From positions 1 to 57,534 of the forward strand of contig JAZKIU010000002.1 of assembly GCA_040384705.1 (NCBI GenBank): a stretch of 57,534 nucleotides of DNA, read 5' to 3'. The position numbers and the translations under genes were made by a program. Of the stretch, positions 1 to 48,630 are shown one piece after another. The stretch comes from Patescibacteria group bacterium. Its GTDB lineage: Bacteria > Patescibacteriota > Minisyncoccia > Phycocordibacterales > Phycocordibacteraceae. Below the pieces are notes generated by a model. That model saw only the letters and a list, made by a program, of their open reading frames with translations. It had not been told where the DNA came from and did not search any database. Within the stretch, counting starts at the first letter, position 1; every line of letters begins with the position of its first letter.

Positions 1-79
1 GTAGCGAGGAAGAGCGTGGAGGTCGCGCTCAAGGTCGTACCGTTCGCCGCGTAGTACGGGAACTGGCCGGTGGTGCCCG
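1..79 (-). repeat. Intragenic repeat copy, pairs with 3832..3910
   Basis: 79 nt with 1 mismatch to 3832..3910. The offset of 3831 nt (1277 codons) is in frame. It encodes ...GTTGQFPYYAANGTTLSATSTLFLAT. The repeat may extend left of the window. Confidence 0.9.
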
Positions 80-3000
80 AGCCCACGGTGCCGGAGCCGC
101 TTCCGCTACCGACGCAGGTGCCATTCACCGCGAAGCAGCCGGAGGCGAGATTGATGCCGTTCGCGAAGGTGGATGATGCTGACCCGGTCTGATTGATAGC
201 GAGGACGTTCAAGCCGCCTGCGAATGTGGAGGTGGCGGTCGTCGTGGCCGTGTAATGCGAAGCCACGACTTCTCCCACGACCGAGAGCTTGGCGTACGGC
301 GAGGAAGTACCTATACCGACCCTGCCGCTATCGCTTATGACCATGGAAAGGATCGGTGCTACGGCATCCGCATTCGATTGCTTTATATAGAACTCGAGCT
401 GGCCCTTGCTGAACGTATCGGTTCGCTGGAACACGATACCGGCGCCGACGTTCGGGTTGGTGCCTGCGGACCATGCGATACCTTGGCCGACGCCGGTGGA
501 TGCGGTCGTTAACTTGAATACTGTATTGTAATTGGCTACATCACCGAGATTCGTGTACGCATCCTTGCTTGTACTTACGTAGAGCGGAGCGAGCGGAGCG
601 GTGCTCCCGATGCCCACGTACCCGCTGGTCGCAAGGAAGATGCTCGATGTCGCCGTGAGCGTGGTGCCGTTCGCCGCGTAGTACGGGAACTGGCCGGTGG
701 TGCCCGAGCCCACGGTGCCGGAGCCGCCTGCGGCACCCACGCAGGTGCCGTTCACCGCGAAGCAGCCTGACGTAAGGTTGATGCCGCCCGTACCGTAAAG
801 GGTCGACGTCGCAGTGGTGAAGTTCGCAATACCACCAATGGACAGAGGCGATCCCGGAGTGGTGGTGCCTATACCGAGATACCCGTTGGTATTGATGGTG
901 AGCGCTGACATCGAGCTCGTCGCGTAGGTAGTCGGCGAAGACGTCGCGATGTAGAGATTCCCGTTTATCGAACGGAAGTTATACGGATTAGAGGAGGTCG
1001 AGCCGTCCGCGAGCATGAGCTGCGGGAGGGTCGAAGTCGCGATAGTGACCTGGCGTAGCGGCGTAGTACTGGTGCCGACCGCGAGCGTGGCCCCGATGAG
1101 CGCGTCCTGCTGGAGGAACGTATCGCCGGCCACCCCAAATATTCCGGCGAATGAGCCGCTCCCTTGAGAGAGGACGCTTCCCTCATCATCGACGTAGAAC
1201 ACGAACGTGTCGGTCGAGTCGTATACGTTGAAGAAGCCGCCTGCGCCGAGCTTCACGTCCACGCTCTCGGTACTAGTAAGCGAGAGACTTTCTTCAGCAT
1301 CCCCATTGAATTTGCTCTCAAGCGTTGCAAAGTTGCCGATATGCAGTTGCGCAATATCCGAGCCGGCCTTCACGCTGACCGCCCCGCTCGTGCTGATGCT
1401 GAGCGACGACGTCGCCGTAAGTGTGGTGCCGTTCGCAGCGTAGTACGGGAACTGACCGGTAGTGCCCGAGCCCACGGTGCCGAGACCGAGCGAGCTCGTC
1501 GCCGTCAGCGTATACCCTCCTGCACTGTTCCCCACCAGTATCTGTCCATACGATGGGAGCGTTGAGAGTCCCGTACCGCCGTACGCCACCGAGATGGTGG
1601 AGGAGGCGGAGACCACGCCATTGAGCGCTTGAAGAGGGCCGGTGAGGGAACCGATGGTAAGCCCGCCATTGAATGTATTGAGTGCGCTGAATGTGTTGGC
1701 GGTGTACGCCTTCGGTATGGTGGTCGAGGCGTGGATGTATGCGTTCACGCTCGCATCGAAGTCGCTGATCGTGGACGCCGCTTGGGTACCCGTGTGGTTG
1801 GCGCGGGCGAGGTAGTATGCGCCTTCCTGGCCATCGAAGGTGCCGGTCCAGTCGCCGGTGGCGTTGAGGGTGAGGGCGCCACCCACATTGCTGAGCCCGG
1901 TGCCCGTGAGGTCGGTGAAGGTCTCGCTGTTAATACCGAGGGAGGAGGTGGTGGCGTTGGTGGTGAGGAGCGTCGGGAATGTGTTAACCGTGGTCGAGGT
2001 CGAAGTGAAATACGAGGCGACCGCTTGGCCGGCGACGGAGAGTCGCGCGTACGGCGACGAAGTACCGATCCCGACGTTACCAGTCGCCGTATCTATATAG
2101 AGGCGGGAGTTCGAACCGTCCGTAACGTTCACCCCGGCAGCTGCCTCAAGATTGAGGACGTTAGCGCCTGCGGAGTTATAGATGTACGCGCGGTTCGTAC
2201 CGTTCTGCTGGAACGAGAGCGAGCCTCCACTCGTCGCGTTCCCGATGGAAACGACCGTGTAGCCGACGACGCTCGCTGGCGAGCCGTTCCCTATCCCGAC
2301 GTTACCCGTGTTCTCGATGAAGATGCGATTCGTGCCGTTCGTCTCGAATGCGAGCGCATTGTCATCGTTCGTACCGAGCGTCGCCGTATTAGCGAAGCTG
2401 TTCCCGTCCTGCTGGAAGAAGGAATAGCCGAGCGAGCTCGTCGCCGTCAGTGTGTATCCGCCCGAACCATTGCCCACGAGGACTTGCCCATAGCTCGGCG
2501 CGCTTGTGAGGCCGGTGCCGCCGTAGAGAACACCGATAGAGGTAGTGGCGGAGACCACACCGTTAAGCGCTTGAAGAGGGCCGGTGAGCGAGCCGATGGT
2601 GAGTCCACCATTAAATGTGTTGAGTGCGGTATATGTATTCGCGGTATATGCCTTCGGTATGGTGGTCGATGCATGGATGTATGCGTTCACTGAATCGTTG
2701 AAATCAGAGATGGTCGACGCCGCTTGGGTACCCGTGTGGTTCGCGCGTGCGAGGTAGTATGCACCTTCCTGGCCGTCGAAGGTGCCGGTCCAGTCGCCGG
2801 TGACATTCACGTTGAGGGAGCCACCCGAGATAGAGAGGCCGGTACCGGTGATGTCGGAGAGATAGTCCGCGCCGAGCGCGAAGCCGGTGAAGGAACCACC
2901 TGCTGCGGTGGAGGTCCCGGACAGGATTGCATTGCCTGTGTTGGTGACTGAGAAGAGCGTTGAGGTTGCCGAGGCGGTGGAGGAGCCGATGGCGAAGAGA

Positions 3001-6000
3001 GTCGTCGCGGTGTCTCCATTGTTCGTCTGGATGCTGAACTTCGCATACGGGGAGGAGGTACCGACGCCGAGCTTGCCGCTCGTCGGGAGCGTGAAGACGG
3101 TCGTCGTTGCAGGAAGAGTTCCGAAGACGAGGCCACCGATGTTGAGCTGGTTATTTGCGGTTCCTGATGGGAAGAATGTGTTGTTGCCGATGCCGATGTT
3201 GCCGGAGCCGGTCGTGAGATCGTTGTCGGAAGTCGAAGGACCGATGAGGATGTTGCTGTGCCCGGTCGAGACCAACTTACCCGACTGGTATCCCAGGAAG
3301 GTGTTGTAGTCGGAGCCGGTGACCATGGCATTACCGGCCTGATAACCGATAACGGTATACCCGCGAGCATTGAACGGCAGGCTGCCGGCAGAGAACGCAC
3401 CTATCGCTATAGTTGCGGTCGCGCTCGTATTGTTAGTGGATGCCTGGTAGCCGACCGCGACGTTATTACTTCCGGTGACGGTCTGCGAAAGTGCCGAATC
3501 CCCGACCGCGACGTTGTCTGTACCAGTCGTATTCCTCCGGAGCGCCTGGAAGCCGAACGCATCGTTACTGAGCCCGGTAGTGTTCGCGCTGAGCGCTCGG
3601 TAGCCGAAGGCAGATAGACGGAACGTTCCGCTCGTCGTCGCATTCTGGCCGCCAGCCTCAAGGCCGAAGATCGTCGTCGAATGCGTCGACGACGCATACC
3701 CGAGCAGGCGTCCGTCCAGCTTGTACCCGCCGGTGATAGCGGATGTATTGAAGAACCCGGATGCGTAGACGTCGCCCGCGACACCGAGCTTGGCCGCTGG
3801 TGTGGTCGAGCCGATGCCGACGTTGCCGGTAGTAGCGAGGAAGAGCGTGGAGGTCGCGCTCAAGGTCGTACCGTTCGCCGCGTAGTACGGGAACTGGCCC
3901 GTGGTGCCCGCGCCTGTCACGCCAAGCCCGAGGGAACTGGTTGCGGTGAGGGTGTACCCCCCTGCTGCATTCCCCACCAGTATCTGTCCGTACGATGGGA
4001 GCGTTGAGAGTCCGGTGCCTCCATATGCCACTGAGATGGTTGAGGAGGCGGAGACCACGCCGTTGAGCGCTTGGAGCGGACCGGTGAGCGAGCCGATGGT
4101 CATGCCGCCCGAGAAGATGTTGCTGCCAGTGAAGGTGTTGGCGGTGTACGCCTTCGGTATCGTCGTGGAGGCGTGGATGTATGCGTTGACCGAGGCGTCG
4201 AAGTCGCTGATGGTCGACGCCGCTTGCGTCCCCGTGTGGTTCGCGCGGTCGAGATAGTAGGAACCTTCCTGGCCGTCGAAGGTGCCGGTCCAGTCGCCTG
4301 ACACACTTGCATTGAGGACACCGGCAGTGATGGTAAGCCCCGTACCAGTGATGTCGGTGAGATAGTCCGCGCCGAGCGCGAAGCCGGTAAAGGCGCCAGC
4401 GGCTGCGGTTGAAGTACCCGACAATATTGCGTTACCCGCGTTGGTCACAGAAAAGAGGGTCGATGTCGCGCTTGCGGTGGAGGAGCCGATGGCGAAGAGA
4501 GTCGTCGCGGTGTCTCCATTGTTCGCGTGGATGCTGAACTTCGCAGCCGAAGATGACGACCCTACGGAGAGAGTGCCGGTGGTCGGGAGTCTGAATACGC
4601 TATCGGTCGACGTCGCCGGGAGCGTACCGAATACGAAGTTACCGAGATTGAACTGATTATTCCCCGTCGCGCTCGGGAAGCGGGAATTGAAGCCGATGCC
4701 GATATTGTTATCGCCGGTCGTGATATATCCAGCACCGGTGGTGTTGGTCTGCGCACCGAGGATGATGTTGTTGTACCCAGTGGTGTTGAGGTACCCAGCC
4801 TGGAACCCGAGGAAAGTGTTGTAGTCGGACTGGTTGCTGACCCTATACCCGGCACGATGCCCGAGATACACGCTCCCTTGCGAGGCGAAGAGACCGGATC
4901 CGGTGCCGGCCTGCGTACCGATGGCGACCGTGCTCGTCGCGGCGGTCGCGAGCGTCAGCGCCTCGTAACCCATGACTACGTTGTCCTGTCCCGTCGCCAA
5001 TAGTGGTGCAGCATTGAAGCCCATCACCGTGTTACCGCTGCCTCTCGTGTTGGACGACAGCGCAAGATCGCCTACCGCCGTATTGTTGCCGCCGACCGTA
5101 TTCAGTTCGAGCGCTCGCTGACCGATAGCGGTGTTGTGCTCTCCCGTGGTGTTCGCGCTGAGCGCCCGGGAACCGAAGGCACTGTTGCTGAAGATGCCCG
5201 AAGATGTCGTTGCGCTCTGTCCGCCGGCACCGATACCGAAGACGGTGACGGCGTTCGTGGACGACGCATATCCCACGAGCTGGTTGTCTATCTTGTACCC
5301 GCCCGTGGTTCCGCTGGTATTGAAGAAGCCGGATGCATAGACGTCGCCCGCGACACCGAGCTTCGCTGCAGGAGTCGTCGTGCCGATACCAACGTTCGTA
5401 CCGGTGCTGTTGTATATGTCGGAGCCGGAGACGGACCAGTAGTTGGAGAGACCCAAGCTCGATGTCGCCGTCAGCGTATACCCTCCTGCACTGTTCCCCA
5501 CCAGTATCTGTCCGTACGAGGGGAGCGTTGAGAGTCCGGTGCCTCCATATGCCACTGAGATGGTTGAGGAGGCGGAGACCACGCCGTTGAGCGCTTGGAG
5601 CGGACCGGTGAGCGAGCCGATGGTCATGCCGCCCGAGAAGATGTTGCTGCCAGTGAAGGTGTTGGCGGTGTACGCCTTCGGTATCGTCGTGGAGGCGTGG
5701 ATGTATGCGTTGACCGAGGCGTCGAAGTCGCTGATGGTCGACGCCGCTTGCGTCCCCGTGTGGTTCGCGCGGTCGAGATAGTAGGAACCTTCCTGGCCGT
5801 CGAAGGTGCCGGTCCAGTCGCCCGTTGCGTTGAGGGTGAGGGCGCCACCCACATTGCTGAGCCCGGTGCCCGTGAGGTCGGTGAAGGTCTCGCTGTTAAT
5901 ACCGAGGGAGGAGGTGGTGGCGTTGGTGGTGAGGATGTTCCCGAATGTCTGCGTTCCTGCCCAGGTGTTGCTGGTGGTGGTGCCGAAGGCGAGGCTTATC

Positions 6001-9000
6001 GCATTAAGGGTGCGCACGAGCGGGTATGCAAAGGAGAGGGCGTTCTCGTAATCGACGCCGGCGAGGGCCGAGAGTATGCCGCCCGTACCGTTCCCCTTCA
6101 GAATACCCGTGAGCGTGGTGGAGCCGGTGCCGCCGTACGCCACCGAGATGGTGGAGGAGGCGGATACCACCCCGTTGAGCGCTTGAAGAGGACCGGTGAG
6201 CGAGCCGAGGGTGAGATTTCCTGCAGTGACCGTACCGGTCGCGGTAAGGTTCGCGAGCGAGAGATTGCCGGAGAAGAGCGCGTTGCCCTGCACCGAGAGC
6301 TGGGTCGACGCGGTGGTCGTACCGATGCCGAGGAAGTTGGAGAAGTACGACTTGCCGTGCACTTCGAAGATGCTCGTGAGTGTCGAGGTCGCGCTGTTCC
6401 CTACGATGACCACATCCGAGGTGTCGGCCGGATAGACAGCGAGGCTGTCGGAGGTCGTGGCCCATGCGCCTGCGCCCCCGCCGCCGCCGGTCGTTAGATC
6501 AGCGCCCCACGCAGGAAGGCCGCCCGTCACCTTGAGCACCTGGCTCGGATTCCCTATTGGAAGCCTCGTCAGATTGCCCGAACCGTCAGCGTAGATGAGA
6601 TCGCCCGCCGCGTAGCTATCGAAGCCGGTGCCGCCGCGCGCCTGCCCGAGCGTGCCGGTAGTGTCGCCAAGCGCTATGCCGAGCGTCGATGTGGCGCGCG
6701 TTCCCCATGCGGAACCGGTCCAGGAAAGCAGATCACCGAATGCGCTACCGCCGATGTGCGGGACGGTCGATGAGCCGCTGATGTAGGAGCCCACCGCTGC
6801 GCTGAAATCAGAGATGGTCGACGCCACTTGGGTACCCGTGTGGTTGGCGCGGTCGAGGTAGTAGGAACCTTCCTGGCCGTCGAAGGTGCCGGTCCAGTCG
6901 CCCGTTGCGTTGAGGGTGAGGGCGCCACCCACATTGCTGAGCCCGGTGCCCGTGAGGTCGGTGAAGGTCTCGCTGTTAATACCGAGGGAGGAGGTGGTGG
7001 CGTTGGTGGTGAGGATGTTCCCGAATGTCTGCGTTCCTGCCCAGGTGTTGCTGGTGGTGGTCGAGAGTGCACTAGCGAAGACGCCTGTCGAGCTGTTGTA
7101 CGTGAGCGGGTAGACCGCGGAGAGCGATGTGGAGGAGACCTTGTTGTTGAAGACGGACCAGTCAGCTGGGATGAGGAAGCCCTTGGTCGAAGCGGAGGCC
7201 GCCTGACCGTTGGTGTAGTCGATGGAAATGTTGCCGGACGTCGCGTCGAAGTCCGCAGCAGTGAAGCTCGCAGCACCCTTCGTGGTCCCGTCTGCTGCGG
7301 CGTTCTGTATGGAAAGCGTGGAGCCGCTAAAGGAAAGCGGTGAGGAGACGGTAGTCGACTGCGCTTGTCCGCTCGCATTGGTGGAAAGGAGCGAAGAGGT
7401 CACGCCTGTGATCGCGAGGTTGGTCGACGTTGCGGTGCCGACCACCGTGAATCCGCCGTTCACGGTTGAGGACGCGGTCGAGAGGAATCCGCTCGTGAAC
7501 GTCTGGAGCGCGCCCCAGGTGTTGGCGGTCGTGGTGCCGAACGCGAGGCTGATGACATTGCTTGCGATCTGGAGAGGGTAGGTCGCGCCCGTGATGCGCG
7601 CGAGGTATGCAGCATTCCATTCCGTCGTCGAAGCGGTGAGCGGGATCACATAACCGGACGTGAGGGAGAAGTCGCCGGTGCCGCTGGTGTACGTGAGGCC
7701 GGTGGCGGACGAAGAGAAGAGGCCGCGCGCGGTAGAAGCGAAGTCGCTGATGGTCGAAGCGAGCTGTGTCCCCGTGTGGTTGGCGCGGGCGAGATAGTAC
7801 GCGCCTTCCTGGCCATCCAGCGTTCCCGTCCAGTCGCCGGTCCTATCGAGCGTGAGCGCGCCTGCGGTTATGACGAGTCCGGAGCCGGTGAGGTCAGTAA
7901 GGTAGTCGCTGCCGAAACGGAGCGCGTTCGTTATCTGCGCGAGCGCGAAGGTAGAAGTTGCGGTGGTCGAGGTCGCGGTGAAGTATTCCGCGACCGCCTG
8001 CCCTACCACCGAGAGCTTCGCGTACGGCGAAGTGGTGCCGATGCCGACGTTCCCCGTCGGCGATACGAAGACGCTCGATGTCGCGGAGACCGTCGTGCCG
8101 TTCGATTCGTAGTATGCAATCTGGCCAGCGGTACCGGTGTTCACGGTGCCTGACCCACCGCCTCCTCCGCCCGTGACGCATGTCCCGTTTACCGCGAAGC
8201 AGCCGCCCGTGAGATTGATGCCGCCCGTCGCGTAGAAGGTGGAGGTCGCGGTGGTGAAGTTCGCGATGTTCGCGAGCGAGAGGAGCGAGCCAGGCGTCGA
8301 GGTGCCGACACCTACGTTGCCCGAGGAGTCGACGGTGATACGCGGAAGGTTATTCGTCTCGAGCTGGAGGCCCTGCGCGTCATTGGTGCCGAGCACCGCG
8401 GTCGTGCCGAAACTGTTCCCGTTCTGGAGGAAGAAGCCGGATGCGAGGCTCGAGGTCGAGACCGAGAGGACACCGCTCGCATTCATGAGGCCGTTGCCGA
8501 GAAGCGACGTGAAGAGATTGCTACCGAGGCGGAAGTTCGTCGTCGAGAAGGTGGTGGAGGTTGCGTATGTCGAGGAAGCGTTCGTCGCGAGGATCGTATC
8601 GATGTATGCGTTGCGCCAGGTGCGGGTCGACGACCCGAGGTCGTAGGTGCTCGTGGTGGACGGGATGAGCGACGAATCGATGGAGGAATTGATAGTGAGC
8701 GTGTCGCTCGAAGCATCGCCGAGGGTCGTGTTGCCGTTCGCCGCGATGTTGCCGGAGAAGACCGACGTTGCGGTGGTCGAGGTCGCGAGCACGTACGGTC
8801 CTGCGAGATAGTCGCCCGCCTCGATGCGCTTCGCGTAGAAGCCGCCCGCGAAGCTCGAGGTCGCGGTGGTCGAGGTGGCGGTGAACGATGGCCCGATGAG
8901 CGAGCTCGTGACGGAGAGGTTCGAGACGGTGAAGCTACCGACCGTGAGCGTTCCGGTGATGTTCGAGTCGCCGGTGACGGTGAGGTCGCCATTCACGGTG

Positions 9001-10727
9001 GTGTTGCCTGCGGAGAGCGCACCGGCGAACGCTCCAGTCGTATCGACGATGAGCGAGTTCACATGGATATCACCCGAGACCGAGGTTATGCCGCCACCCC
9101 CGCCATCGTTCTGGTTCTCGGCGTTCGTATTGATAGCTCGCTGGAGCCTGGCGACCCACGTATCGACGTATGCGATAGAGGCGCCTTCAGTGAACTGGTT
9201 CTGGTAGATGTTCTGCACCACCGTGCTCGTACCGGTACTGATGATATTCGTGGTGCCTGCGCCCGTTCCGGAGCGAGGATAATCGACCATGACTATCGGG
9301 AACCGGTTCGTGTACGGGTCGGTGAAGGTGGCGACCGCATAGCCCGCCCAGTCGAAGAATGCGGAGAAGGAACCGTAGGTGGCCCGTGCCAAGTACTGGG
9401 CACGGCCGAGGAACCAGCTCGGCAGCAGGGATACCGCGTCAGATGGGAAGGCAGCGAATGGCGAAGCAAGCCCCGCATTTGCAGCGACCGCCACGATCGG
9501 TTCTTCCTCGACGTACGCCAGCTCTTGTTCCTCTGCCGCGAGCGTCTTCGAAGCGTCCTCGCGCGCAGGCGTGCCGATGAGTCCTGCGTCGTACGCAAGC
9601 GAACCGAACGAGGTACCTATCGCGAGTTCGGTCGTGAGCGCTTGATGAGCGATGGTTCGGCTCGCCTCGGAGAAATCCGTGACACTGCGCTCGTATGCGA
9701 GGGGGGCCGTATGGATGCCGGTCGCAAGCGAGCTAGAGATGTTCCTTCCGAGTGCGAGCGCGCTCTCCGTCGCGAACGCAGGCACATCGTGCGCGCCCTC
9801 GGCCCATGCATACACGCCATGCTCGTACGCGTCCTGTACTGCGGTCACTCCCGCTGCGAATGAATTCCCGAATGAAAGGTAGGTGGCGGGAAGCGTTGCG
9901 ACGCCATCCCGTATGAATACTCCTATCGAAAGAAGACTGCTTCCGCTTCCATCGATGTGTGCGAGATATGCGCGCTTCGCATGCTCGACGCTTGCGAGCG
10001 GATCAAGGAGTGTTACGACCGCGTCATGCGCAAGATTCGCGGATGGATCCGGGACGAACGCGGTGCGCTCCTCGATGAGGGTGAACGCGGAAAATCCGGC
10101 GGGTGCGGATAGCACGTCCGCACTAGTCAGCATCGCGCTGCCGAACGCAAGAATATCTACGGGTTCCGGCGCAGCCACCGCGTACACGTGAGGAGAAGAA
10201 ACGGACGAGTTGCTCTCGATGCCGCGAATGCTGGTAGCGAGGCGAAGGCTGGTATCGACGAACGAGGCGATGAGACCCGAGGAAGCGACAGCTGAACTCG
10301 CCCCAAGAATGACTATAGTGAGCGCGAGCGCATACACCTGCCGAGTAAATACGGCGATCTTCGACGCATAAGGCGATGGAACCGATGTGATTGGGACGTG
10401 TCGTGGTACCGGCGCGACTGACTGCACCACTTCCTTTACAACCTCAATTTCCGCTGGCTCTACAACATCCTTGACCGTTTCGCTAACTACTTTCTGATAT
10501 TCAACCTCACGCGCCTTAGACAAGGACTCAGCGAGTACTCGCTTTCGCTCCTCCTGTTCGCGAACGAACGCGAGTACGGATTCCTTCGAGACGAGCCATG
10601 CGCGACCGATTTGCTGTCCATCGATTTTTCCGGCACGGCACATGCGTGCGAGGTAGTCCGAATGGTACCCCGAAATTTCCGAGGCTTCCTTAGTCGAGAT
10701 TAAATTGTTTTCAAGGAGTGGATGCAT
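1..10727 (-). CDS. Giant surface fibre/adhesin-like protein: N-terminal excisionase/MerR-type HTH, one TM helix, then >3,400 aa of repetitive Thr/Ser/Gly/Asn-rich extracellular sequence. C-terminus lies beyond the window (partial, >=3575 codons).
   Basis: Hand translation of the minus strand. ATG at 10727, with an in-frame TAG 21 nt upstream, gives MHPLLENNLISTKEASEISGYHSDYLARMCRAGKIDGQQIGRAWLVSKESVLAFV... The TM helix is IAVFTRQVYALALTIVILGASSAVASSGLIASF. The same frame is still open at base 1 (...GTTGQFPYYAANGTTLSATSTLFLAT), and 10727-5 is divisible by 3. No in-frame stop was seen in the parts translated. It is absent from the ORF track because it has no stop in the window; all track ORFs in 1-10200 are other frames or antisense. 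Confidence 0.85.
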   Translation of the reverse strand, partial: MHPLLENNLISTKEASEISGYHSDYLARMCRAGKIDGQQIGRAWLVSKESVLAFVREQEERKRVLAESLSKAREVEYQKVVSETVKDVVEPAEIEVVKEVVQSVAPVPRHVPITSVPSPYASKIAVFTRQVYALALTIVILGASSAVASSGLIASFVDTSLRLATSIRGIESNSSVSSPHVYAVAAPEPVDILAFGSAMLTSADVLSAPAGFSAFTLIEERTAFVPDPSANLAHDAVVTLLDPLASVEHAKRAYLAHIDGSGSSLLSIGVFIRDGVATLPATYLSFGNSFAAGVTAVQDAYEHGVYAWAEGAHDVPAFATESALALGRNISSSLATGIHTAPLAYERSVTDFSEASRTIAHQALTTELAIGTSFGSLAYDAGLIGTPAREDASKTLAAEEQELAYVEEEPIVAVAANAGLASPFAAFPSDAVSLLPSWFLGRAQYLARATYGSFSAFFDWAGYAVATFTDPYTNRFPIVMVDYPRSGTGAGTTNIISTGTSTVVQNIYQNQFTEGASIAYVDTWVARLQRAINTNAENQNDGGGGGITSVSGDIHVNSLIVDTTGAFAGALSAGNTTVNGDLTVTGDSNITGTLTVGSFTVSNLSVTSSLIGPSFTATSTTATSSFAGGFYAKRIEAGDYLAGPYVLATSTTATSVFSGNIAANGNTTLGDASSDTLTINSSIDSSLIPSTTSTYDLGSSTRTWRNAYIDTILATNASSTYATSTTFSTTNFRLGSNLFTSLLGNGLMNASGVLSVSTSSLASGFFLQNGNSFGTTAVLGTNDAQGLQLETNNLPRITVDSSGNVGVGTSTPGSLLSLANIANFTTATSTFYATGGINLTGGCFAVNGTCVTGGGGGGSGTVNTGTAGQIAYYESNGTTVSATSSVFVSPTGNVGIGTTSPYAKLSVVGQAVAEYFTATSTTATSTFALAQITNALRFGSDYLTDLTGSGLVITAGALTLDRTGDWTGTLDGQEGAYYLARANHTGTQLASTISDFASTARGLFSSSATGLTYTSGTGDFSLTSGYVIPLTASTTEWNAAYLARITGATYPLQIASNVISLAFGTTTANTWGALQTFTSGFLSTASSTVNGGFTVVGTATSTNLAITGVTSSLLSTNASGQAQSTTVSSPLSFSGSTLSIQNAAADGTTKGAASFTAADFDATSGNISIDYTNGQAASASTKGFLIPADWSVFNNKVSSTSLSAVYPLTYNSSTGVFASALSTTTSNTWAGTQTFGNILTTNATTSSLGINSETFTDLTGTGLSNVGGALTLNATGDWTGTFDGQEGSYYLDRANHTGTQVASTISDFSAAVGSYISGSSTVPHIGGSAFGDLLSWTGSAWGTRATSTLGIALGDTTGTLGQARGGTGFDSYAAGDLIYADGSGNLTRLPIGNPSQVLKVTGGLPAWGADLTTGGGGGAGAWATTSDSLAVYPADTSDVVIVGNSATSTLTSIFEVHGKSYFSNFLGIGTTTASTQLSVQGNALFSGNLSLANLTATGTVTAGNLTLGSLTGPLQALNGVVSASSTISVAYGGTGSTTLTGILKGNGTGGILSALAGVDYENALSFAYPLVRTLNAISLAFGTTTSNTWAGTQTFGNILTTNATTSSLGINSETFTDLTGTGLSNVGGALTLNATGDWTGTFDGQEGSYYLDRANHTGTQAASTISDFDASVNAYIHASTTIPKAYTANTFTGSNIFSGGMTIGSLTGPLQALNGVVSASSTISVAYGGTGLSTLPSYGQILVGNSAGGYTLTATSSLGLSNYWSVSGSDIYNSTGTNVGIGTTTPAAKLGVAGDVYASGFFNTSGTTGGYKIDNQLVGYASSTNAVTVFGIGAGGQSATTSSGIFSNSAFGSRALSANTTGEHNTAIGQRALELNTVGGNNTAVGDLALSSNTRGSGNTVMGFNAAPLLATGQDNVVMGYEALTLATAATSTVAIGTQAGTGSGLFASQGSVYLGHRAGYRVSNQSDYNTFLGFQAGYLNTTGYNNIILGAQTNTTGAGYITTGDNNIGIGFNSRFPSATGNNQFNLGNFVFGTLPATSTDSVFRLPTTGTLSVGSSSSAAKFSIHANNGDTATTLFAIGSSTASATSTLFSVTNAGNAILSGTSTAAAGAFTGFALGADYLTDITGTGLTITAGVLNASVSGDWTGTFDGQEGSYYLDRANHTGTQAASTISDFDASVNAYIHASTTIPKAYTANTFTGSNIFSGGMTIGSLTGPLQALNGVVSASSTISVAYGGTGLSTLPSYGQILVGNAAGGYTLTATSSLGLGVTGAGTTGQFPYYAANGTTLSATSTLFLATTGNVGIGSTTPAAKLGVAGDVYASGFFNTSAITGGYKLDGRLLGYASSTHSTTIFGLEAGGQNATTSGTFRLSAFGYRALSANTTGLSNDAFGFQALRRNTTGTDNVAVGDSALSQTVTGSNNVAVGYQASTNNTSATATIAIGAFSAGSLPFNARGYTVIGYQAGNAMVTGSDYNTFLGYQSGKLVSTGHSNILIGPSTSDNDLTTGSGNIGIGNNTFFPSGTANNQLNIGGLVFGTLPATTTVFTLPTSGKLGVGTSSPYAKFSIQTNNGDTATTLFAIGSSTASATSTLFSVTNTGNAILSGTSTAAGGSFTGFALGADYLSDITGTGLSISGGSLNVNVTGDWTGTFDGQEGAYYLARANHTGTQAASTISDFNDSVNAYIHASTTIPKAYTANTYTALNTFNGGLTIGSLTGPLQALNGVVSATTSIGVLYGGTGLTSAPSYGQVLVGNGSGGYTLTATSSLGYSFFQQDGNSFANTATLGTNDDNALAFETNGTNRIFIENTGNVGIGNGSPASVVGYTVVSIGNATSGGSLSFQQNGTNRAYIYNSAGANVLNLEAAAGVNVTDGSNSRLYIDTATGNVGIGTSSPYARLSVAGQAVASYFTSTSTTVNTFPTLLTTNATTSSLGINSETFTDLTGTGLSNVGGALTLNATGDWTGTFDGQEGAYYLARANHTGTQAASTISDFDASVNAYIHASTTIPKAYTANTFSALNTFNGGLTIGSLTGPLQALNGVVSASSTISVAYGGTGLSTLPSYGQILVGNSAGGYTLTATSSLGLGTVGSGTTGQFPYYAANGTTLTATSSLSISTSGAVSVKAGSDIAQLHIGNFATLESKFNGDAEESLSLTSTESVDVKLGAGGFFNVYDSTDTFVFYVDDEGSVLSQGSGSFAGIFGVAGDTFLQQDALIGATLAVGTSTTPLRQVTIATSTLPQLMLADGSTSSNPYNFRSINGNLYIATSSPTTYATSSMSALTINTNGYLGIGTTTPGSPLSIGGIANFTTATSTLYGTGGINLTSGCFAVNGTCVGAAGGSGTVGSGTTGQFPYYAANGTTLTATSSIFLATSGYVGIGSTAPLAPLYVSTSKDAYTNLGDVANYNTVFKLTTASTGVGQGIAWSAGTNPNVGAGIVFQRTDTFSKGQLEFYIKQSNADAVAPILSMVISDSGRVGIGTSSPYAKLSVVGEVVASHYTATTTATSTFAGGLNVLAINQTGSASSTFANGINLASGCFAVNGTCVGSGSGSGTVGSGTTGQFPYYAANGTTLSATSTLFLA
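1861..1969 (-). repeat. Intragenic repeat copy, identical to 5827..5935 and 6907..7015
   Basis: 109 nt identical by eye. The offset of 3966 nt (1322 codons) is in frame. Confidence 0.85.
3832..3910 (-). repeat. Intragenic repeat copy, pairs with 1..79
   Basis: See 1..79. Confidence 0.9.
3971..4298 (-). repeat. 328-nt near-identical intragenic repeat, copy 1
   Basis: Matches 5495..5822 with a single mismatch seen (gtacgaTggg vs gtacgaGggg). The offset is 1524 nt (508 codons). Antisense track ORFs 3901..4257 and 5443..5781 share an identical 80+ aa tail as a by-product. Confidence 0.92.
5495..5822 (-). repeat. 328-nt near-identical intragenic repeat, copy 2
   Basis: See 3971..4298. Confidence 0.92.
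5779..5981 (-). repeat. 203-nt identical intragenic repeat, copy 1
   Basis: Identical by eye to 6859..7061. The offset is 1080 nt (360 codons). It overlaps the previous repeat family, so the repeats are mosaic. Confidence 0.9.
6859..7061 (-). repeat. 203-nt identical intragenic repeat, copy 2
   Basis: See 5779..5981. Confidence 0.9.
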
Positions 10728-10786
10728 GTCGGATAACCGAATTAACTAAATTCTATCTGTCTTTTCGGAAATACCGCAGTAATTTT

Positions 10787-10846
10787 TGTGGATAGCTTTA
10801 GAAACTTTTCATGAAGGGAATTTACTCATCACGCGCGAAAAGTTTT
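10787..10846 (-). promoter_or_regulatory. Upstream motif of the giant gene: TGTGGATAGCTTTA (near DnaA-box 9-mer) plus inverted repeat GAAACTTTTC / GAAAAGTTTT
   Basis: tgtggatagcttta at 10787..10800 matches tgtggataacttta at 17657..17670 in 13 of 14 positions. gaaaagtttt at 10837..10846 is identical to 17673..17682. gaaacttttc at 10801..10810 is its near-perfect inverted partner. The function is unknown. Confidence 0.35.
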
Positions 10847-11088
10847 AACGGCGAGGCTAATTAATACAGTGATCTTCAAAGAAGAAATCTTAAGCATGTA
10901 ATCCCCTAAGAGGTTCTACGGTAAGGATGAATTCAAGAAAATGAGGGGACTATGCACGTCGATAGTTCGTAATGCGTGACTTCAGAGGCTCAAAATGGCT
11001 CGTAGAAGGCCGTTCGAATCAAAGACTGTGGAAATATGTGTCTCGAAATCTTAATTGAAGTAGCTAGTTGCAATAGTTGATACAAAAG

Positions 11089-11114
11089 AAATAAAAAACT
11101 CCGCATGTGCGGAG
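11089..11114 (-). terminator. Rho-independent terminator downstream of 11167..12141
   Basis: The minus strand reads CTCCGC-acat-GCGGAG followed by TTTTTTATTT. Confidence 0.8.
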
Positions 11115-11166
11115 ATTTTACTTGGTACCAATCTCGTATATACGAGACGAGAAATGCTTTACATAC

Positions 11167-12141
11167 CTACTTCTTTATCTCGCTCTCTCCGCGTACGAAA
11201 TCAAATACATGTCCGCGTACGCTTGTATCAATCCCGCGTTGAGCTAGAAATGCATCCATTACTCCGCTACCTACAAGGGCGGTTATGAGCGCCATACCTG
11301 CCACAGCTACCAGCACCGCTTGAATGCTGTTCACCCTTGAGCGTGATTTCCCGGTAATAGGCGCAGCGATTCGAGCATTCGTTCTTGGTCGAGGCGCTGA
11401 CGTTCTCCTCGATAGATCAATGACTCCCCCGCTAACATGCGCACGCGGTGGCATAGCTTCGGCAGGAGATGGTTCAGGTCGCTTTATGGTAAATGGAACT
11501 CTCTCCTCTTCTTCAAATGAATCGAACTGCTCCTGCGCTTCGACATTCGATTGAGGGATTGTCGCTGGCGGTATTAGCTCCTGTGAAACATTAGATATGT
11601 TGTATTCATTAGATATGTCGGTTGCCCGAACCGCGACAGTATCTTCTTCGGGCATTTCTACCGGTGACTCAACCTCGACTTCCAATTGGGGGTACGGCTC
11701 ATCCTCCATTGCCTTCTCCTCGTTCTGAGGAAGCGATCTTTCGCGCGTCTCGAACCACTCCTTCCAGGCATCTTGCATCATGGAAACAGCTGGTGTGGGC
11801 TCCACTGCTTCCACAACCACCTCTGGTGGCTTTGTAGCAGCAAATACGGGCATAAGCGGTGCTTCGGGCTCAGATACGTAGCGCGGAGCCTCCCATATCG
11901 CCGTAGATGCCTCCACCTTGAATTCAGACGAGTCCGTTGCTACCTCTTTCTTCACTGATTCGTTGCCAAAACGATGCGCTCTTATGGCAGATTCCAGTAC
12001 ATACCAGCTTCGTCCGACCAAACGAGCCTCGACACGACCCTCTCGGCACAATTGGCCGACATAATCCTTCGCATATCCTGTTATCTTGGCCGCCCGCTTC
12101 GACGAGATATATATCTTGTCTCCAATAGTCAGTTCATCCAT
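11167..12141 (-). CDS. HTH (excisionase/MerR-like) protein with long acidic Pro/Glu-rich linker and C-terminal TM helix; paralogue of the N-terminus of the giant protein
   Basis: 324-aa ORF. Its N-terminus IYISSKRAAKITGYAKDYVGQLCREGRVEARLVGRSWYVLESAIRAH aligns with giant-protein residues 9-56. The TM helix is IQAVLVAVAGMALITALVGSGVM, near the C-terminus. It has its own -10 box and terminator. Confidence 0.8.
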   Translation of the reverse strand: MDELTIGDKIYISSKRAAKITGYAKDYVGQLCREGRVEARLVGRSWYVLESAIRAHRFGNESVKKEVATDSSEFKVEASTAIWEAPRYVSEPEAPLMPVFAATKPPEVVVEAVEPTPAVSMMQDAWKEWFETRERSLPQNEEKAMEDEPYPQLEVEVESPVEMPEEDTVAVRATDISNEYNISNVSQELIPPATIPQSNVEAQEQFDSFEEEERVPFTIKRPEPSPAEAMPPRAHVSGGVIDLSRRTSAPRPRTNARIAAPITGKSRSRVNSIQAVLVAVAGMALITALVGSGVMDAFLAQRGIDTSVRGHVFDFVRGESEIKK

Positions 12142-12147
12142 GCTTTG

Positions 12148-12153
12148 AGTATA
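12148..12153 (-). promoter_or_regulatory. -10 box TATACT, 6 nt upstream of the ATG at 12141 (leaderless-type)
   Basis: The minus strand reads GCTTATACTCAAAGC-ATG. Confidence 0.55.
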
Positions 12154-12214
12154 AGCTTTTCTCGTCTTGTATGAAATGGGTTGTTAACAAGATTCATATA
12201 TGATTCGAGGACAA

Positions 12215-12235
12215 GTAAAAAACACCCCTCGGGTG
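12215..12235 (-). terminator. Rho-independent terminator downstream of gatB
   Basis: The minus strand reads CACCC-gag-GGGTG followed by TTTTTTAC. A T-run is also present on the plus side. Confidence 0.7.
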
Positions 12236-12267
12236 CTTTTTATGCTCACTAATCTGCCGCATCTCCC

Positions 12268-13665
12268 CTATGACGGCTTCCTGATTTCCTCTGCTAGAAG
12301 AGTGGATATGGTCCCAGGATTGCCCGCTCCCTTAGACGCCTTCATCCCCTGGCCCACCAAGAACTGGAGGACGCTCTCCTTGCCTGCCAGGTACTCCGCT
12401 ACGACAGTCGGGTGTTCAGCGATGACTGCCTGGACGATGGTGCGGAGCGCTTCGGGATCGCTCACCTGAAGCACCCCTAGCTCTTGAGCGACAGCGACAG
12501 ATGAGGTGGCACCGGTTGCCACGAGCGTGGCGAGCACCTCTTTCGCACCTCGCGAGGATATCTCTCCCTGTTCGATCATTCGCGCGAGCTCTGCGAACGC
12601 TTGCGGCGAGAGCTTCGCGTGCTCGCCTGCAACATCCGATATTAAATAGTTGGCACCGATCTTCACGAGCGCCTGATTATTCTCAACCTCAGCTAGGAAC
12701 ATATCGAAGAAGGTGCTGTCTTCGACGCTTCCCGCAAGTTGCACTGCTGTTACATCGTTGAGTCCGAGGGATGCATACCGAGCGCGCCGCTCCCATGGGA
12801 GTTCCGGCATGGACAGGGCCAGCTCTTCCTTCGTCAGCCACGGTATCTCTGAGAGCACGAGCTTTGGGAGGTCGGGCTCCGGGAAGTATCGGTAGTCGGC
12901 ACTCCCCTCCTTGAGCCGCTGCGGAAAAGTAATCTGTTTATTCTCGTCCCATCCACGGGTCTCCTGCGTCACTCGGCCTCCTGACTCAATGAGTTCTATC
13001 TGCCGTGCTACTTCGAACTCTATCGCGCGCTCGACCGAACGGAACGAGTTGAGGTTCTTGACCTCGACCTTCGTCCCGAATGTATCGTCCTTCGAAACGG
13101 AGATATTCGCCTCGACGCGCATCTCGCCCTTCTCAAGATTCGCGTGCGACGCGCCGAGCGTGCGCAGGAGAAGCTGGAGTTCCCGCGCGAAGCGTCCGGC
13201 CGTCTCGGCGTCATGGATGACCGGTTCAGTGACGAGCTCCATGAGGGGAACGCCGGCACGATTGAAGTCGACGATGCTTCCCTTCGCGCTATGAGCGGAG
13301 CGCGCAGTGTCTTCTTCTAGATGCACGCGAGTCACCGCGACCCCTGTGAGCTCGCCACCCGATACAAGCGGTCGCTCGTACTGGCTGATCTGGTATCCCT
13401 TCGGAATGTCCGGGTAGAAATAGGACTTGCGATCGAACTCGGTATAGTCCGCGAGCGTGCCGCCGATAGCGGTCCCGACGCGTCCAATGTGGCGGAGCGC
13501 TTCCTGGTTTATGACCGGAAGCGTACCGGGGTGCGCGAGGCAGACCGGGCAGATATTGGTGTTGGGTTCGCTCCCATCCGGATCGTTCGCGGAGTCGCAG
13601 AACATCTTGGTCCGCGTCGCGAGCTCCGCGTGCACTTCAAGGCCGATGGTGGGGCGATAACTCAT
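12268..13665 (-). CDS. gatB: Asp-tRNA(Asn)/Glu-tRNA(Gln) amidotransferase subunit B
   Basis: 465 aa. The N-terminus MSYRPTIGLEVHAELATRTKMFCDS...ICPVCLAHPGTLPVIN is typical GatB, as is the overall length. Confidence 0.96.
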   Translation of the reverse strand: MSYRPTIGLEVHAELATRTKMFCDSANDPDGSEPNTNICPVCLAHPGTLPVINQEALRHIGRVGTAIGGTLADYTEFDRKSYFYPDIPKGYQISQYERPLVSGGELTGVAVTRVHLEEDTARSAHSAKGSIVDFNRAGVPLMELVTEPVIHDAETAGRFARELQLLLRTLGASHANLEKGEMRVEANISVSKDDTFGTKVEVKNLNSFRSVERAIEFEVARQIELIESGGRVTQETRGWDENKQITFPQRLKEGSADYRYFPEPDLPKLVLSEIPWLTKEELALSMPELPWERRARYASLGLNDVTAVQLAGSVEDSTFFDMFLAEVENNQALVKIGANYLISDVAGEHAKLSPQAFAELARMIEQGEISSRGAKEVLATLVATGATSSVAVAQELGVLQVSDPEALRTIVQAVIAEHPTVVAEYLAGKESVLQFLVGQGMKASKGAGNPGTISTLLAEEIRKPS

Positions 13666-13706
13666 TGGCTACACGGTACCCCGAGGGCGAGCCCTGGCGC
13701 AAGCGG

Positions 13707-14681
13707 CTACCGTCCGGGCGTGAGCTCTTTCGTGAGCCTGTCCGCGAACGCTTTCAGGAGCTCGTCATCGATGACCGAGAGCGGTATGACCTCCTTCCCT
13801 ATCGCCTTGGAGAGGGTGGCAACAGCGGCTTCCCGCTCTGATTCAGGCAGTATATCCACCTTGGAGAGGACAACGATCTCCTGCTTATCCGTAAGATTCC
13901 CATCGACGGTAGCGAGCTCTTTTCGTATATCCTGATAGCTTTTTGCAGGGTCTTCTTGTTCAGCCGAGACGAGATGCACAAGGAATCGCGTGCGTTCGAT
14001 ATGGCGAAGGAACTTGGCTCCGAGACCTCGTCCGCTCGAGGCTCCCTCGATGAGACCAGGAATATCAGCGAGAAGGAACCCGTAGAAGTCACCGAGATGG
14101 GGGTCGAGCGTGGTGAATGGATATGCCGCCACCTTGGACTTGGAGCGGGTAAGCGAGTTCACGAGGGAGGACTTCCCCGCGTTCGGGAAGCCGATGAATC
14201 CAGCGTCCGCGATGAGTTTGAGGGTGATATGGATATCCCCACCCTGCCCCTTCTTACCCTTCGTGGTCTCGAACGGATTGCGGTTAACCGAGCTCTTGAA
14301 GTGGGCATTGCCGAACCCGCCTCCCCCTCCCTTATAGACGATGATGCGCTCGCCCTCCGAGAGTATCTCGTAGGTCTCGCCGGTAGAGGTCGTCGCAACG
14401 GTACCCACCGGTACCCGTATCACTGCTGGCTCGCCATCTTTCCCATGCTTGTCGTTGCCTCCTCCTGGGCCTCCGTCCTCTCCCTTGAAGCTCTTCGTGA
14501 ACCGGTATGACGCGAGTACCGCGAGATCGCGCACTCCCTCGAGCACGACATCACCGCCACGCCCGCCATCACCGCCGGCAGGCCCCGCTTTCTCGAGCCC
14601 CTTCAAGTGGAGCCAACGCACGACGCCATCGCCACCGCGGCCAGCGGTTGCGCGTACGTTCATTTCATCGACGAGTGCCAT
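13707..14681 (-). CDS. obg: GTPase Obg/CgtA
   Basis: The Obg fold appears as MALVDEMNVRATAGRGGDGVV...GGDGGRGGDV. G motifs are GFPNAGKSS and DIPGLIEGA. The track ORF extends to 14762, but that extension crosses the secA terminator palindrome. The ATG at 14681 matches the usual Obg N-terminus. Confidence 0.92.
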   Translation of the reverse strand: MALVDEMNVRATAGRGGDGVVRWLHLKGLEKAGPAGGDGGRGGDVVLEGVRDLAVLASYRFTKSFKGEDGGPGGGNDKHGKDGEPAVIRVPVGTVATTSTGETYEILSEGERIIVYKGGGGGFGNAHFKSSVNRNPFETTKGKKGQGGDIHITLKLIADAGFIGFPNAGKSSLVNSLTRSKSKVAAYPFTTLDPHLGDFYGFLLADIPGLIEGASSGRGLGAKFLRHIERTRFLVHLVSAEQEDPAKSYQDIRKELATVDGNLTDKQEIVVLSKVDILPESEREAAVATLSKAIGKEVIPLSVIDDELLKAFADRLTKELTPGR

Positions 14682-14718
14682 ATAACTTGAGCCTACCTGG
14701 TCGCGCATGAAAATACCA

Positions 14719-14758
14719 GAAAGGCCCCCGAGCTCCATATGGAGCTCGGGGGCCTTTC
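14719..14758 (-). terminator. Perfect 40-nt palindrome (up to 20 bp self-complementary per arm; no unpaired centre) immediately after the secA stop; likely terminator or attenuator
   Basis: gaaaggcccccgagctccat|atggagctcgggggcctttc. On the minus strand it is followed by TGGTATTTTC. Confidence 0.65.
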
Positions 14759-14768
14759 TCAAACGAGA

Positions 14769-17294
<2,526 letters not shown>

Positions 17295-17340
17295 ATACGG
17301 AGCACTATACCTCTACGACGGCTTCGAAGATAGGCCGTAA

Positions 17341-17369
17341 GGAAAAGGAAAAACGCCCCACTGGGGCGT
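17341..17369 (-). terminator. Rho-independent terminator after the small Lys-rich gene
   Basis: The minus strand reads ACGCCCC-agt-GGGGCGT followed by TTTTTCCTTTTCC. Confidence 0.8.
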
Positions 17370-17386
17370 CGTTCCTAAGAATGCAA

Positions 17387-17524
17387 TTACTTGCGCTTCT
17401 TTGCTGCCTTGCGCTTGGTCGTCTTCTTTGCAGTAGACTTCTTTGCGGCCTTCTTTGCAGGCTTGCGCTTGGTCGTCTTCTTTGCAGTAGACTTCTTCGC
17501 AACCTTCCTCTTTTTTGCTGCCAT
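17387..17524 (-). CDS. 45-aa lysine-rich basic protein (histone H1/Hc1-like low-complexity DNA-binding type)
   Basis: Hand translation gives MAAKKRKVAKKSTAKKTTKRKPAKKAAKKSTAKKTTKRKAAKKRK*. It is below the 60-aa track cutoff. It contains an internal direct repeat (KKSTAKKTTKRK twice) and is followed by its own terminator. The overlapping 87-aa Arg-rich track ORF is another frame and runs through that terminator. Confidence 0.55.
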   Translation of the reverse strand: MAAKKRKVAKKSTAKKTTKRKPAKKAAKKSTAKKTTKRKAAKKRK

Positions 17525-17656
17525 ATGTCTGGATGAAAATTTCTACAACTAGTATTGTCGACCCACACGCAAATTCTTCCGAAGAAGTTCTTGCACGTGT
17601 GTTCCGTTATTTATTATTGCGCGTGCAGGATTTTTTTGTAACGAAAAAATAAAATG

Positions 17657-17682
17657 TGTGGATAACTTTATAGAAAAGTTTT
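17657..17682 (-). promoter_or_regulatory. Second copy of the TGTGGATAACTTTA...GAAAAGTTTT motif; contains a perfect DnaA-box 9-mer (TTATCCACA on the minus strand)
   Basis: See 10787..10846. It lies about 130-160 nt upstream of the Lys-rich gene. Confidence 0.35.
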
Positions 17683-17707
17683 GCGTAAATATTTCTGCGA
17701 AAAAAAA

Positions 17708-48601: not shown

Positions 48602-48609
48602 TGGCTCAC

Positions 48610-48615
48610 AGTATA
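48610..48615 (-). promoter_or_regulatory. -10 box TATACT, 8 nt upstream of the ATG at 48601
   Basis: The minus strand reads GCGGTATACTGTGAGCCA-ATG. Confidence 0.5.
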
Positions 48616-48630
48616 CCGCGCAAACGCGAG

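Follow-up and report, generated by a model that had tools for sequence, protein, structure and literature searches.

The mosaic adhesive trimer (MAT) fibres of Bdellovibrio bacteriovorus stand on the surface of the predator, are grouped into S74 and non-S74 subfamilies and differ in their adhesive tips (Caulton et al. 2024, PMC10769870). MAT proteins have a length of about 1000 amino acids (aa), the full-length construct starts at residue 21 behind a PelB leader, and the invariant N-terminal domain, for which there is no solved structure, is thought to bind an unidentified surface element (PMC10769870). Here we describe a giant gene at one end of a 57,534-nucleotide stretch of DNA (hereafter the window; NCBI GenBank assembly GCA_040384705.1, contig JAZKIU010000002.1, positions 1 to 57,534) from a Patescibacteria group bacterium. 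It is a real chromosomal gene of an ultrasmall, Paceibacteria-type bacterium that belongs to the Candidate Phyla Radiation (CPR), and the window holds its 5′ 10.7 kb. Each part of its product is of a known kind, namely an excisionase-type winged helix-turn-helix (wHTH) domain, a signal anchor, and a fibre of MAT or tail-fibre type with Peptidase_S74 (S74). What is new is the combination of a wHTH, one helix and a giant putative surface fibre, conserved together with a paralogous partner gene and dedicated DNA motifs, for which no characterised counterpart was found.

The giant protein shares with the MAT fibres sequence homology over fibre segments, a mosaic repeat build, and the occurrence of S74 and non-S74 variants with differing C-terminal tips; moreover, Bdellovibrio and the giant-fibre bacterium both live on other bacteria. 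It differs in being three to four times longer and in starting with a predicted cytoplasmic wHTH and a transmembrane (TM) helix. Phage S74 tail fibres and tailspikes are a second point of reference, since modules of the giant protein are 30–40% identical to them and match PHROG tail fibre and tail spike families, and complete homologues carry the S74 Ser-Lys motif. Unlike the phage genes, however, the giant gene is chromosomal and lies among GatB, Obg, SecA, MurB and a glycosylation cluster rather than among phage structural genes, its N-terminal module has no relative in viral contigs, and its product is predicted to sit in the cell membrane rather than in a baseplate, with some 350–450 residues, including an immunoglobulin (Ig)-like domain, following S74 in homologues.

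The N-terminal part invites comparison with a different set of proteins. ToxR, TcpP, CadC and TfoS/ChiS are transmembrane transcription regulators (PMC7888679, PMC11856585). In common with them, the giant protein is predicted to place a DNA-binding-type domain in the cytoplasm at its N-terminus, to cross the membrane with one TM helix and to have its C-terminal part outside. A first-pass annotation of this DNA had pointed to the topology of ToxR/CadC-type regulators; the resemblance goes no further than topology, the helix-turn-helix (HTH) being HTH_17/excisionase-MerR-like rather than OmpR-like, with no OmpR-type Trans_reg_C in a Pfam scan at E≤1. The outside part is also a fibre of thousands of residues, where theirs is a small sensor domain. 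RacA of Bacillus subtilis consists of a MerR-type wHTH and a long helix, anchors the origin region to the pole and reaches the membrane through DivIVA. The giant protein matches RacA, BldC, Xis and TraN/AM32 in its winged-HTH fold, and resembles RacA further in the long helix after the wHTH and, possibly, in attaching DNA to the cell envelope; these proteins are, however, soluble, and neither a TM helix nor a surface fibre is joined to any of them. RodZ, in which an XRE-type HTH binds MreB and the periplasmic domain is small, is likewise built from a cytoplasmic HTH at the N-terminus, a single TM helix and a C-terminal part outside the membrane, and sets a precedent for an HTH as docking module, although the Pfam scan revealed no sequence relation to the giant protein.

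Reading frame, winged HTH and membrane anchor

The minus-strand frame that opens with ATG 10727 continues to base 3 through 3575 codons without a stop, whereas each of the remaining five frames holds 34–215 stops over the same 10.7 kb. The nearest in-frame stop before this ATG is a TAG 21 nucleotides (nt) upstream, and ATG 10727 is the first possible start. Over the first 80 codons, differences from eight related genomes are concentrated at third codon positions (2/1/14 at codon positions 1/2/3 for the genome L002, 16/11/43 for L004 and 13/9/41 for L005), a pattern of divergence that supports translation from ATG 10727. The first-pass annotation had placed the start at this ATG and had described a frame open across the whole 10.7 kb and past base 1 that the accompanying program-made list of open reading frames (ORFs) did not show. 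Both descriptions are borne out, and the frame is missing from the list because ORFs that run off the source are omitted from it. Many long shadow ORFs, up to 354 aa, overlap the giant gene on the plus strand and in the other minus frames (window 1–10200; for example 1629–2693, plus). Their most likely source is the GC-rich, repetitive coding sequence of that gene, and an annotation in which the cut-off giant ORF goes unlisted could mistake them for genes.

The ORF leaves the contig at base 3 inside a repeat, bases 1–159 being 84% identical to bases 628–786. The break is thus an assembly break, and the C-terminus is missing for this reason. The order of modules within the gene is as given by the short-read assembly; the internal DNA repeats share no more than 91% identity over 300 nt and are therefore assemblable. 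When the contig was to be extended, an exact-protein look-up with the partner gene returned a 6.4-kb Logan contig as its sole match, and an exact 61-mer near base 170 had no match in metagenome contigs. The contig of the closest genome, L002, likewise breaks inside the giant gene, and the contig end lies no more than 10 kb downstream of the giant-gene start in 30 of the 45 related loci. Thus, the gene is systematically truncated in, or missing from, gene catalogues.

Residues 10–58 match Pfam HTH_17 (PF12728) with 33.8 bits against a curated cut-off of 27 (E 4e-8). The NCBIfam model TIGR01764 (“excise”) scores 25 bits, below its cut-off of 28.8, and PHROG excisionase and DNA-binding families match the N-terminus weakly. 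We built an AlphaFold2 (AF2) model of residues 1–90 from a 38-sequence alignment (predicted local distance difference test score, pLDDT, of 89.4). The model displays a beta-alpha-alpha-beta-beta winged helix (strands E9–11, E37–40 and E43–47, helices H12–19 and H23–31), followed by one long helix at aa 48–89. A Foldseek comparison with the PDB matched the model to Xis of mycobacteriophage Pukovnik (4j2n; root-mean-square deviation of 1.6 Å over 47 columns, TMt 0.69), as well as to TraN (a DNA-binding protein of type IV secretion), BldC, RacA, Tn916 Xis, RdfS, GlnR and CarH, every match being a DNA-binding wHTH protein, and a profile search of PDB sequences found AM32 of the TraN family (E 2.2e-5). 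Profile and model agree in confirming aa 8–58 as an HTH_17/excisionase-MerR winged-helix fold, as had been suggested for the start of the protein in the first-pass annotation.

This N-terminus is the most conserved region of the giant protein, with a consensus of M..LL.KNLISTKEASELSGY.SDYLARLCR.GKI.G.QVGR.WLV...SL..F...Q..RK.E.A..L...RE.EYR. Across the 38 sequences, nine columns are invariant, the wing motif GR.W is retained, and Q58, K62, L69, R73, E76 and Y77 are invariant or nearly so. The HTH carries a mean net charge of +1.8 in proteins of the giant class and of +3.9 in the class of the partner protein.

The sole hydrophobic segment of the protein (Kyte-Doolittle, 19-residue window, peak 1.96) lies at aa ~124–153 (KIAVFTRQVYALALTIVILGASSAVASSGLIASFV). 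The first-pass annotation had rightly called a single hydrophobic helix but put it at about aa 95–127, and the actual segment lies some 30 residues further in. Nearly all homologues possess one TM helix at aa ~95–160. Within the 15 aa flanking this helix in 110 homologues, Lys and Arg residues number 2.17 on average on the N-terminal side versus 1.01 on the C-terminal side, with the N-terminal side richer in 74 proteins and the C-terminal side richer in 8. Such a positive-inside bias is what an N-in signal anchor with a cytoplasmic HTH would show, and a type-II (N-in) membrane topology is therefore predicted.

Fibre body, family and synteny

Residues 521–3575 are composed of 15.9% Thr, 14.3% Gly, 12.3% Ser, 11.2% Ala and 6.9% Asn, in keeping with the Thr/Ser/Gly/Asn-rich, fibre-like body described at first pass. 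Repeats within this body reach 95% aa identity over 160 aa by self-BLAST, and Tandem Repeats Finder found no true tandem arrays, the repeats being long, diverged and interspersed. A Pfam scan of the body at E≤1 gave no significant family. PHROG matches are to tail fibre, tail spike and virion structural families, phrog_6002 (2.8e-29) and phrog_4636 (3e-22) among them. By phmmer, aa 780–913 match Bd3182 (8OJN/8ONB/8ONC) with an E-value of 1.1e-8 and Bd2133 (8OND) with 4.1e-6, the PDB entries being those identified in PMC10769870. A module with NTA[IV]G-type repeats, of which a second copy lies at aa ~2350–2530, is 30–40% identical by tblastn to tail fibres of Pelagibacter phage HTVC111P, Roseobacter phages and the Prochlorococcus phage P-SSM2.

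A further motif, (GDWTGT[FL])DGQEG.YY(L.RANHTGTQ), occurs in six copies at aa 971, 1283, 1643, 2151, 2651 and 2965 (window ~1830–7815, minus). Its single conserved His could lie on the trimer axis and bind metal, by analogy with other fibres. PHROG “head decoration” and “tail collar” families match at the six copies.

Judged by these sequence matches, the fibre is of the phage tail-fibre or Bdellovibrio MAT type and not of the YadA/Hep_Hag type. The body models put forward in the first-pass annotation thus fared unequally. The tail-fibre model found its match; Peptidase_S74 is present in complete homologues, near the C-terminus, a region that the contig end cuts off in the window; and YadA/Hep_Hag was rejected, as the Pfam scan of the whole body at E≤1 held no such match, the anchor is N-terminal, and complete homologues possess no C-terminal anchor domain of that type in Pfam. 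A bactofilin identity was rejected as well (14 bits, below the Pfam cut-off).

Word-indexed protein searches were uninformative about relatives (no match with aa 1–500, and only short unnamed fragments with the N-terminal profile), so that an exhaustive HMMER search was needed to reveal the family. We searched residues 1–520 against 1.84 billion representative proteins and obtained 2500 matches at E≤1e-3 and 450 at E≤1e-10. Among the best 150 matches, most align from residue 1 through the TM helix and have exactly one TM helix, and 41 are 900–4524 aa long. Public names are limited to “helix-turn-helix domain-containing protein” (some “partial”) and “hypothetical protein”, and literature searches on HTH-anchored giant CPR proteins found no description or characterised example, in agreement with the first-pass statement that none was known.

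We also scanned one genome per GTDB species with a query alignment of 8 sequences. The HTH module was found at 47 loci, all in metagenome-assembled genomes of Patescibacteria (labelled Paceibacterota, Parcubacteria, Minisyncoccia or Doudnabacteria, some generically “Saccharibacteria”), and at ~40 of the 47 one TM helix and a giant ORF come after it. With few exceptions, this ORF exceeds 3400 aa at loci that have 10 kb of downstream DNA. Copies found complete in the scan measure 2920 aa (L007), 2369 aa (L020), 2462 aa (L039) and 764 aa (L022), and the first three lie at positions 10001–18763, 10001–17110 and 10001–17389 of their loci, respectively.

The C-terminal ends of homologues vary. Peptidase_S74 with an SDERLK Ser-Lys motif is located near the C-terminus of L039, P0036, P0040, P0020, P0056, P0030, L027, P0058 and P0129. 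The residues that follow it include a Bact_surface_Ig-like domain and a Pro-rich tail, and in L039, P0036 and P0040 this S74, Ig-like and Pro-rich series stands behind the same HTH-TM N-terminus. L020, P0061 and P0084 instead share a small non-S74 tip domain, and L007 has seven LVIVD repeats in its outside part. Since different outside parts are joined to the same HTH-TM N-terminus, the N-terminal module behaves as a portable anchor. No LPxTG-like motif was found in the last 80 residues of 15 long homologues, which would leave the N-terminal helix as the only anchor.

The gene order MurB-SecA-Obg-GatB-(partner)-giant is preserved on one strand in ~40 loci (window 10727–18757, minus), in which GatB is 58–93% identical to that of the window. 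Such synteny is unusually stable for genomes with GatB only ~60–70% identical. The partner gene, directly upstream of the giant gene in ~40 loci, encodes a second HTH-TM protein. Its wHTH is 36–54% identical to that of the giant protein across loci and matches HTH_17 weakly, and in its first 58 aa most columns reach at least 80% identity across 39 species. The giant HTH-TM-fibre protein thus represents a conserved, syntenic family across Patescibacteria and is not a one-off.

These data bear on whether the gene might encode not a cellular membrane protein but a tail fibre of a prophage or phage, or whether it might be a chimera assembled from repeats. The match of the body modules to phage tail fibre families and the contig end within a repeat would suit such an origin. 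Against it stand the housekeeping neighbours, in conserved order in ~40 species; the lack of any relative when the N-terminal pattern was scanned over 2.9 million viral contigs; the same continuous HTH-TM-fibre ORF in independent assemblies, contigs of 600–743 kb among them; and the divergence of the DNA repeats. Synteny, independent assemblies and the lack of viral relatives largely refute this explanation, which we consider highly improbable.

Promoter motifs and the proposed role of the HTH

A promoter/operator-like element precedes the giant gene (Table 1). Its consensus in 42 sequences of different species (TATCC[A/C]CA, ~31 nt, TA.AAT, 8 nt, TTCGG(A/T)TATCCGAC) is near-invariant, and in L002–L042 the element is located about 110 nt upstream of the gene start. 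It is far more conserved than the adjacent coding DNA, in which nucleotide identity is 57–76% in the seven distant genomes of the eight compared and 93% in L002. The terminal 14-mer (degenerate pattern TTCGGWTATCCGAC) contains the palindrome TCGGATATCCGA, that is, the form TCGG(A/T)TATCCGA. Its variation is confined to the central four bases, and its spacing to the -10-like box is constant even where the start codon sits 13 nt further on. One copy is present in the 57.5-kb window and one per locus (~20 kb each) in 29 loci. As RNA, the 14-mer would form a 4-bp hairpin (−4.3 kcal/mol, z −1.5). We rejected an RNA element as the explanation of the 5′ region, because the hairpin is weak and no better than that of shuffled sequence, and Rfam gave no family match there.

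The partner gene carries a motif of its own (pattern ACGAGRCGAGA), in fuller form ACGAGACGAGA(A/T)A, which lies between the -35 and TATACT in a promoter-like site, TTCATA-16-TATACT. The closeness of the ATG to TATACT suggests a leaderless-like transcript. Inverted copies of the motif bracket the partner gene at equivalent positions in most loci. Two conserved HTH domains and two conserved motifs, one per promoter, form the pattern expected for autoregulating DNA binders, and from this sequence pattern we infer that the HTH domains may bind those promoter motifs as autoregulators.

The reading that we favour, and to which we give about even credence, sees in the giant protein a fibre for host contact, anchored in the membrane with its N-terminus inside and probably trimeric; its cytoplasmic HTH would bind DNA, with its own operator as the most plausible site. 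In this scheme, the HTH would fold in the cytoplasm, the TM helix would act as a signal anchor that holds the fibre in the membrane, and the long C-terminal part would be exported. Three chains would then assemble, with the C-terminal chaperone or tip nucleating a trimer that zips into one long fibre, by analogy with MAT and S74 tail fibres. Projecting from the cell, the fibre would bind to host or prey surfaces, whose recognition is suggested by the variable tips. The long tail fibre of phage T4 extends by ~0.06 nm per residue; by that measure, a fibre of ~3000 residues would be ~100–200 nm long, a size comparable to that of the cell. On the inner side of the membrane, the three HTH domains would bind the palindrome TCGG(A/T)TATCCGA, which overlaps the predicted transcription start of the giant gene, resulting in autoregulation (repression) or in tethering of the locus. 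The partner, a 320-aa HTH-TM paralogue, would act likewise on its own ACGAGACGAGA motif. SecA is encoded three genes from the giant gene in every locus, perhaps by coincidence.

DNA binding could also serve a purpose other than regulation, with the HTH acting as a RacA-like tether between chromosome and membrane that places the nucleoid or the locus under the base of the fibre. RacA-DNA complexes are among the fold matches, the two proteins have the design of a wHTH followed by a long helix in common, and the giant protein cannot leave the membrane. The 14-mer, however, occurs once per ~20-kb locus and once in the 57.5-kb window, exactly at the promoter, and at both scales a single promoter-placed site fits an operator better than it fits dispersed tether sites; we regard a pure tether as quite unlikely.

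Alternatively, fibre and anchor might be as described and the HTH might not bind DNA at all, serving as a RodZ-like foot that docks to the partner protein or some other structure of the cytoplasm, or simply as a folded plug for stop-transfer. The genes of the two paralogous HTH-TM proteins are always neighbours, as would fit a hetero-complex; the giant HTH of the window is not basic; and RodZ shows, as a precedent, that an HTH-TM protein can have a ligand other than DNA. A docking foot nevertheless has to contend with close structural matches that are all DNA binders and with the retention of wing GR.W and a basic mean charge across the family, and it leaves the near-invariant DNA motif at each gene's promoter unexplained. 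We hold it to be rather unlikely.

Several observations weigh against the favoured combination of a host-contact fibre and an operator-binding HTH. The window's own giant HTH is slightly acidic, about −2 over aa 1–60. The palindrome has undergone no compensatory or co-varying change by which a protein operator could be told apart from an RNA element or a site for another factor. The TATCC[AC]CA box resembles a DnaA box and recurs upstream of an unrelated 45-aa Lys/Ala-rich ORF, so that at least part of the element may belong to a general or other factor. On the extracellular side, the AF2 model of the base (aa 150–530) is unusable (pLDDT 35), neither S74 nor a tip occurs in the 3575 aa of the window, the C-terminus lying beyond the contig end, and the argument for host adhesion of the giant fibre is one of analogy.

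Surroundings of the locus and meaning for Patescibacteria

The features of the giant gene and its partner are collected in Table 1.

Table 1. Position and support of the features of the giant gene and partner gene (window coordinates)
Feature	Position	Strand	Support
Giant ORF, 3575 codons, C-terminal end cut by contig end	3..10727	-	No stop; third-position divergence; homologues 2369–4524 aa
Cytoplasmic winged HTH (predicted location), aa 8–58, HTH_17/excisionase-MerR	10554..10706	-	Pfam PF12728, AF2, Foldseek, AM32 PDB sequence match
Charged alpha-helix after HTH, conserved, aa 59–89, consensus Q..RK.E.A..L...RE.EYR	10461..10553	-	AF2 helix 48–89; conserved columns
Variable Pro/Val/Glu-rich cytoplasmic linker, aa 90–123	10359..10460	-	No conservation among homologues
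Single transmembrane signal-anchor helix (predicted), aa 124–153	10269..10358	-	Kyte-Doolittle; homologues; positive-inside bias
Ala/Ser-rich extracellular base, aa 154–520, predicted mostly helical	9168..10268	-	Conserved in closer relatives only; no Pfam match
Fibre body, aa 521–3575, mosaic of diverged repeat modules	3..9167	-	Self-BLAST, DNA repeats, PHROG
Fibre segment homologous to solved part of Bdellovibrio Bd3182, aa 780–913	7989..8390	-	phmmer
Repeat-rich module, aa 1848–2028, NTA[IV]G-type repeats, phage-tail-fibre-like	4644..5186	-	tblastn, PHROG
Giant-gene promoter/operator-like element: TATCCACA box (10787–10794), ~31 nt, -10-like TAGAAT, 8 nt, TTCGGTTATCCGAC (10728–10741) abutting ATG	10728..10794	-	
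Partner gene, 324 aa: paralogous wHTH, acidic/Pro-rich linker, C-terminal TM helix, short external tail (~30 residues)	11167..12141	-	
Partner-gene promoter motif ACGAGACGAGA (ACAAGACGAGA in window), then -10 TATACT, ATG 6 nt after	12160..12170	-	Conserved in 39 sequences
Inverted partner-motif copy (TTTCTCGTCTCGT...ACGAGA) just past partner stop codon (11142–11152), then terminator-like hairpin (11099–11114) and T-run	11099..11152	-	

Between MurB and SecA, a 45-aa ORF consisting almost entirely of Lys, Ala, Thr and Arg (MAAKKRKVAKKSTAKKTTKRK...; window 17387–17524, minus) resembles nucleoid proteins of the histone-H1-like kind. Upstream of it, at 17657–17665, is a perfect DnaA-box-like TTATCCACA, and the same box lies upstream of the giant gene. 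We considered the low-GC intergenic region with TTATCCACA as a replication origin and rejected this for now, on the grounds that it has a single box only, that the box is also found upstream of the other gene, and that GC skew mainly reflects the giant gene's codon bias.

The region beyond MurB (window ~18757–46695) is a glycosyltransferase and O-antigen-ligase cluster. It encodes an O-antigen-ligase-like Wzy_C+TPR protein, a GT2 and several GT1/GT4 glycosyltransferases, FkbM and TylF methyltransferases, YdjC-GtrA, nucleotidyltransferases and a UDP-glucose dehydrogenase-like protein, and could glycosylate the envelope or the Thr/Ser-rich fibre. It is followed by a 609-aa TrwB/TraG-like ATPase with type IV secretion coupling-protein domains of that type (46823–48652, minus). 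Mur ligases are also encoded in the window, which apart from the giant gene and its neighbours is ordinary chromosome. A partial 16S rRNA gene (56514–57534, minus), adjoined by tRNA-Ile(GAT) (55976–56048, minus), is cut by the other contig end; with 16S rRNA at one end and the fibre repeat at the other, both contig ends lie in repeats.

To our knowledge, the means by which most CPR bacteria (Patescibacteria) recognise and attach to their hosts are largely unknown, and outside Saccharibacteria almost nothing has been tested. The giant protein is a strong candidate for the host-contact structure of Paceibacteria, given its positional conservation in dozens of species, a build akin to the prey-recognition fibres of Bdellovibrio and the receptor-binding fibres of phages, and C-terminal tips that vary between homologues. 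The conserved cytoplasmic DNA-binding-type domain, the paralogous partner and the matching motifs lead to the further hypothesis of a surface fibre that is wired to gene control. In its fullest form, which we put forward as speculative and unlikely, a single polypeptide would link a host-contact fibre of possibly 100–200 nm to the chromosome. A trimeric HTH foot would occupy the palindrome of its own gene and the partner would occupy ACGAGACGAGA, so that whether the fibre has assembled, undergone S74 processing, come under tension or met a host would be read directly at the DNA, or the nascent HTH would silence its own promoter in cis during expression of the 10-kb gene. CPR bacteria have very few conventional regulators. 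If true, the giant protein would represent a new class of membrane-spanning adhesin-regulator that is specific to CPR bacteria.

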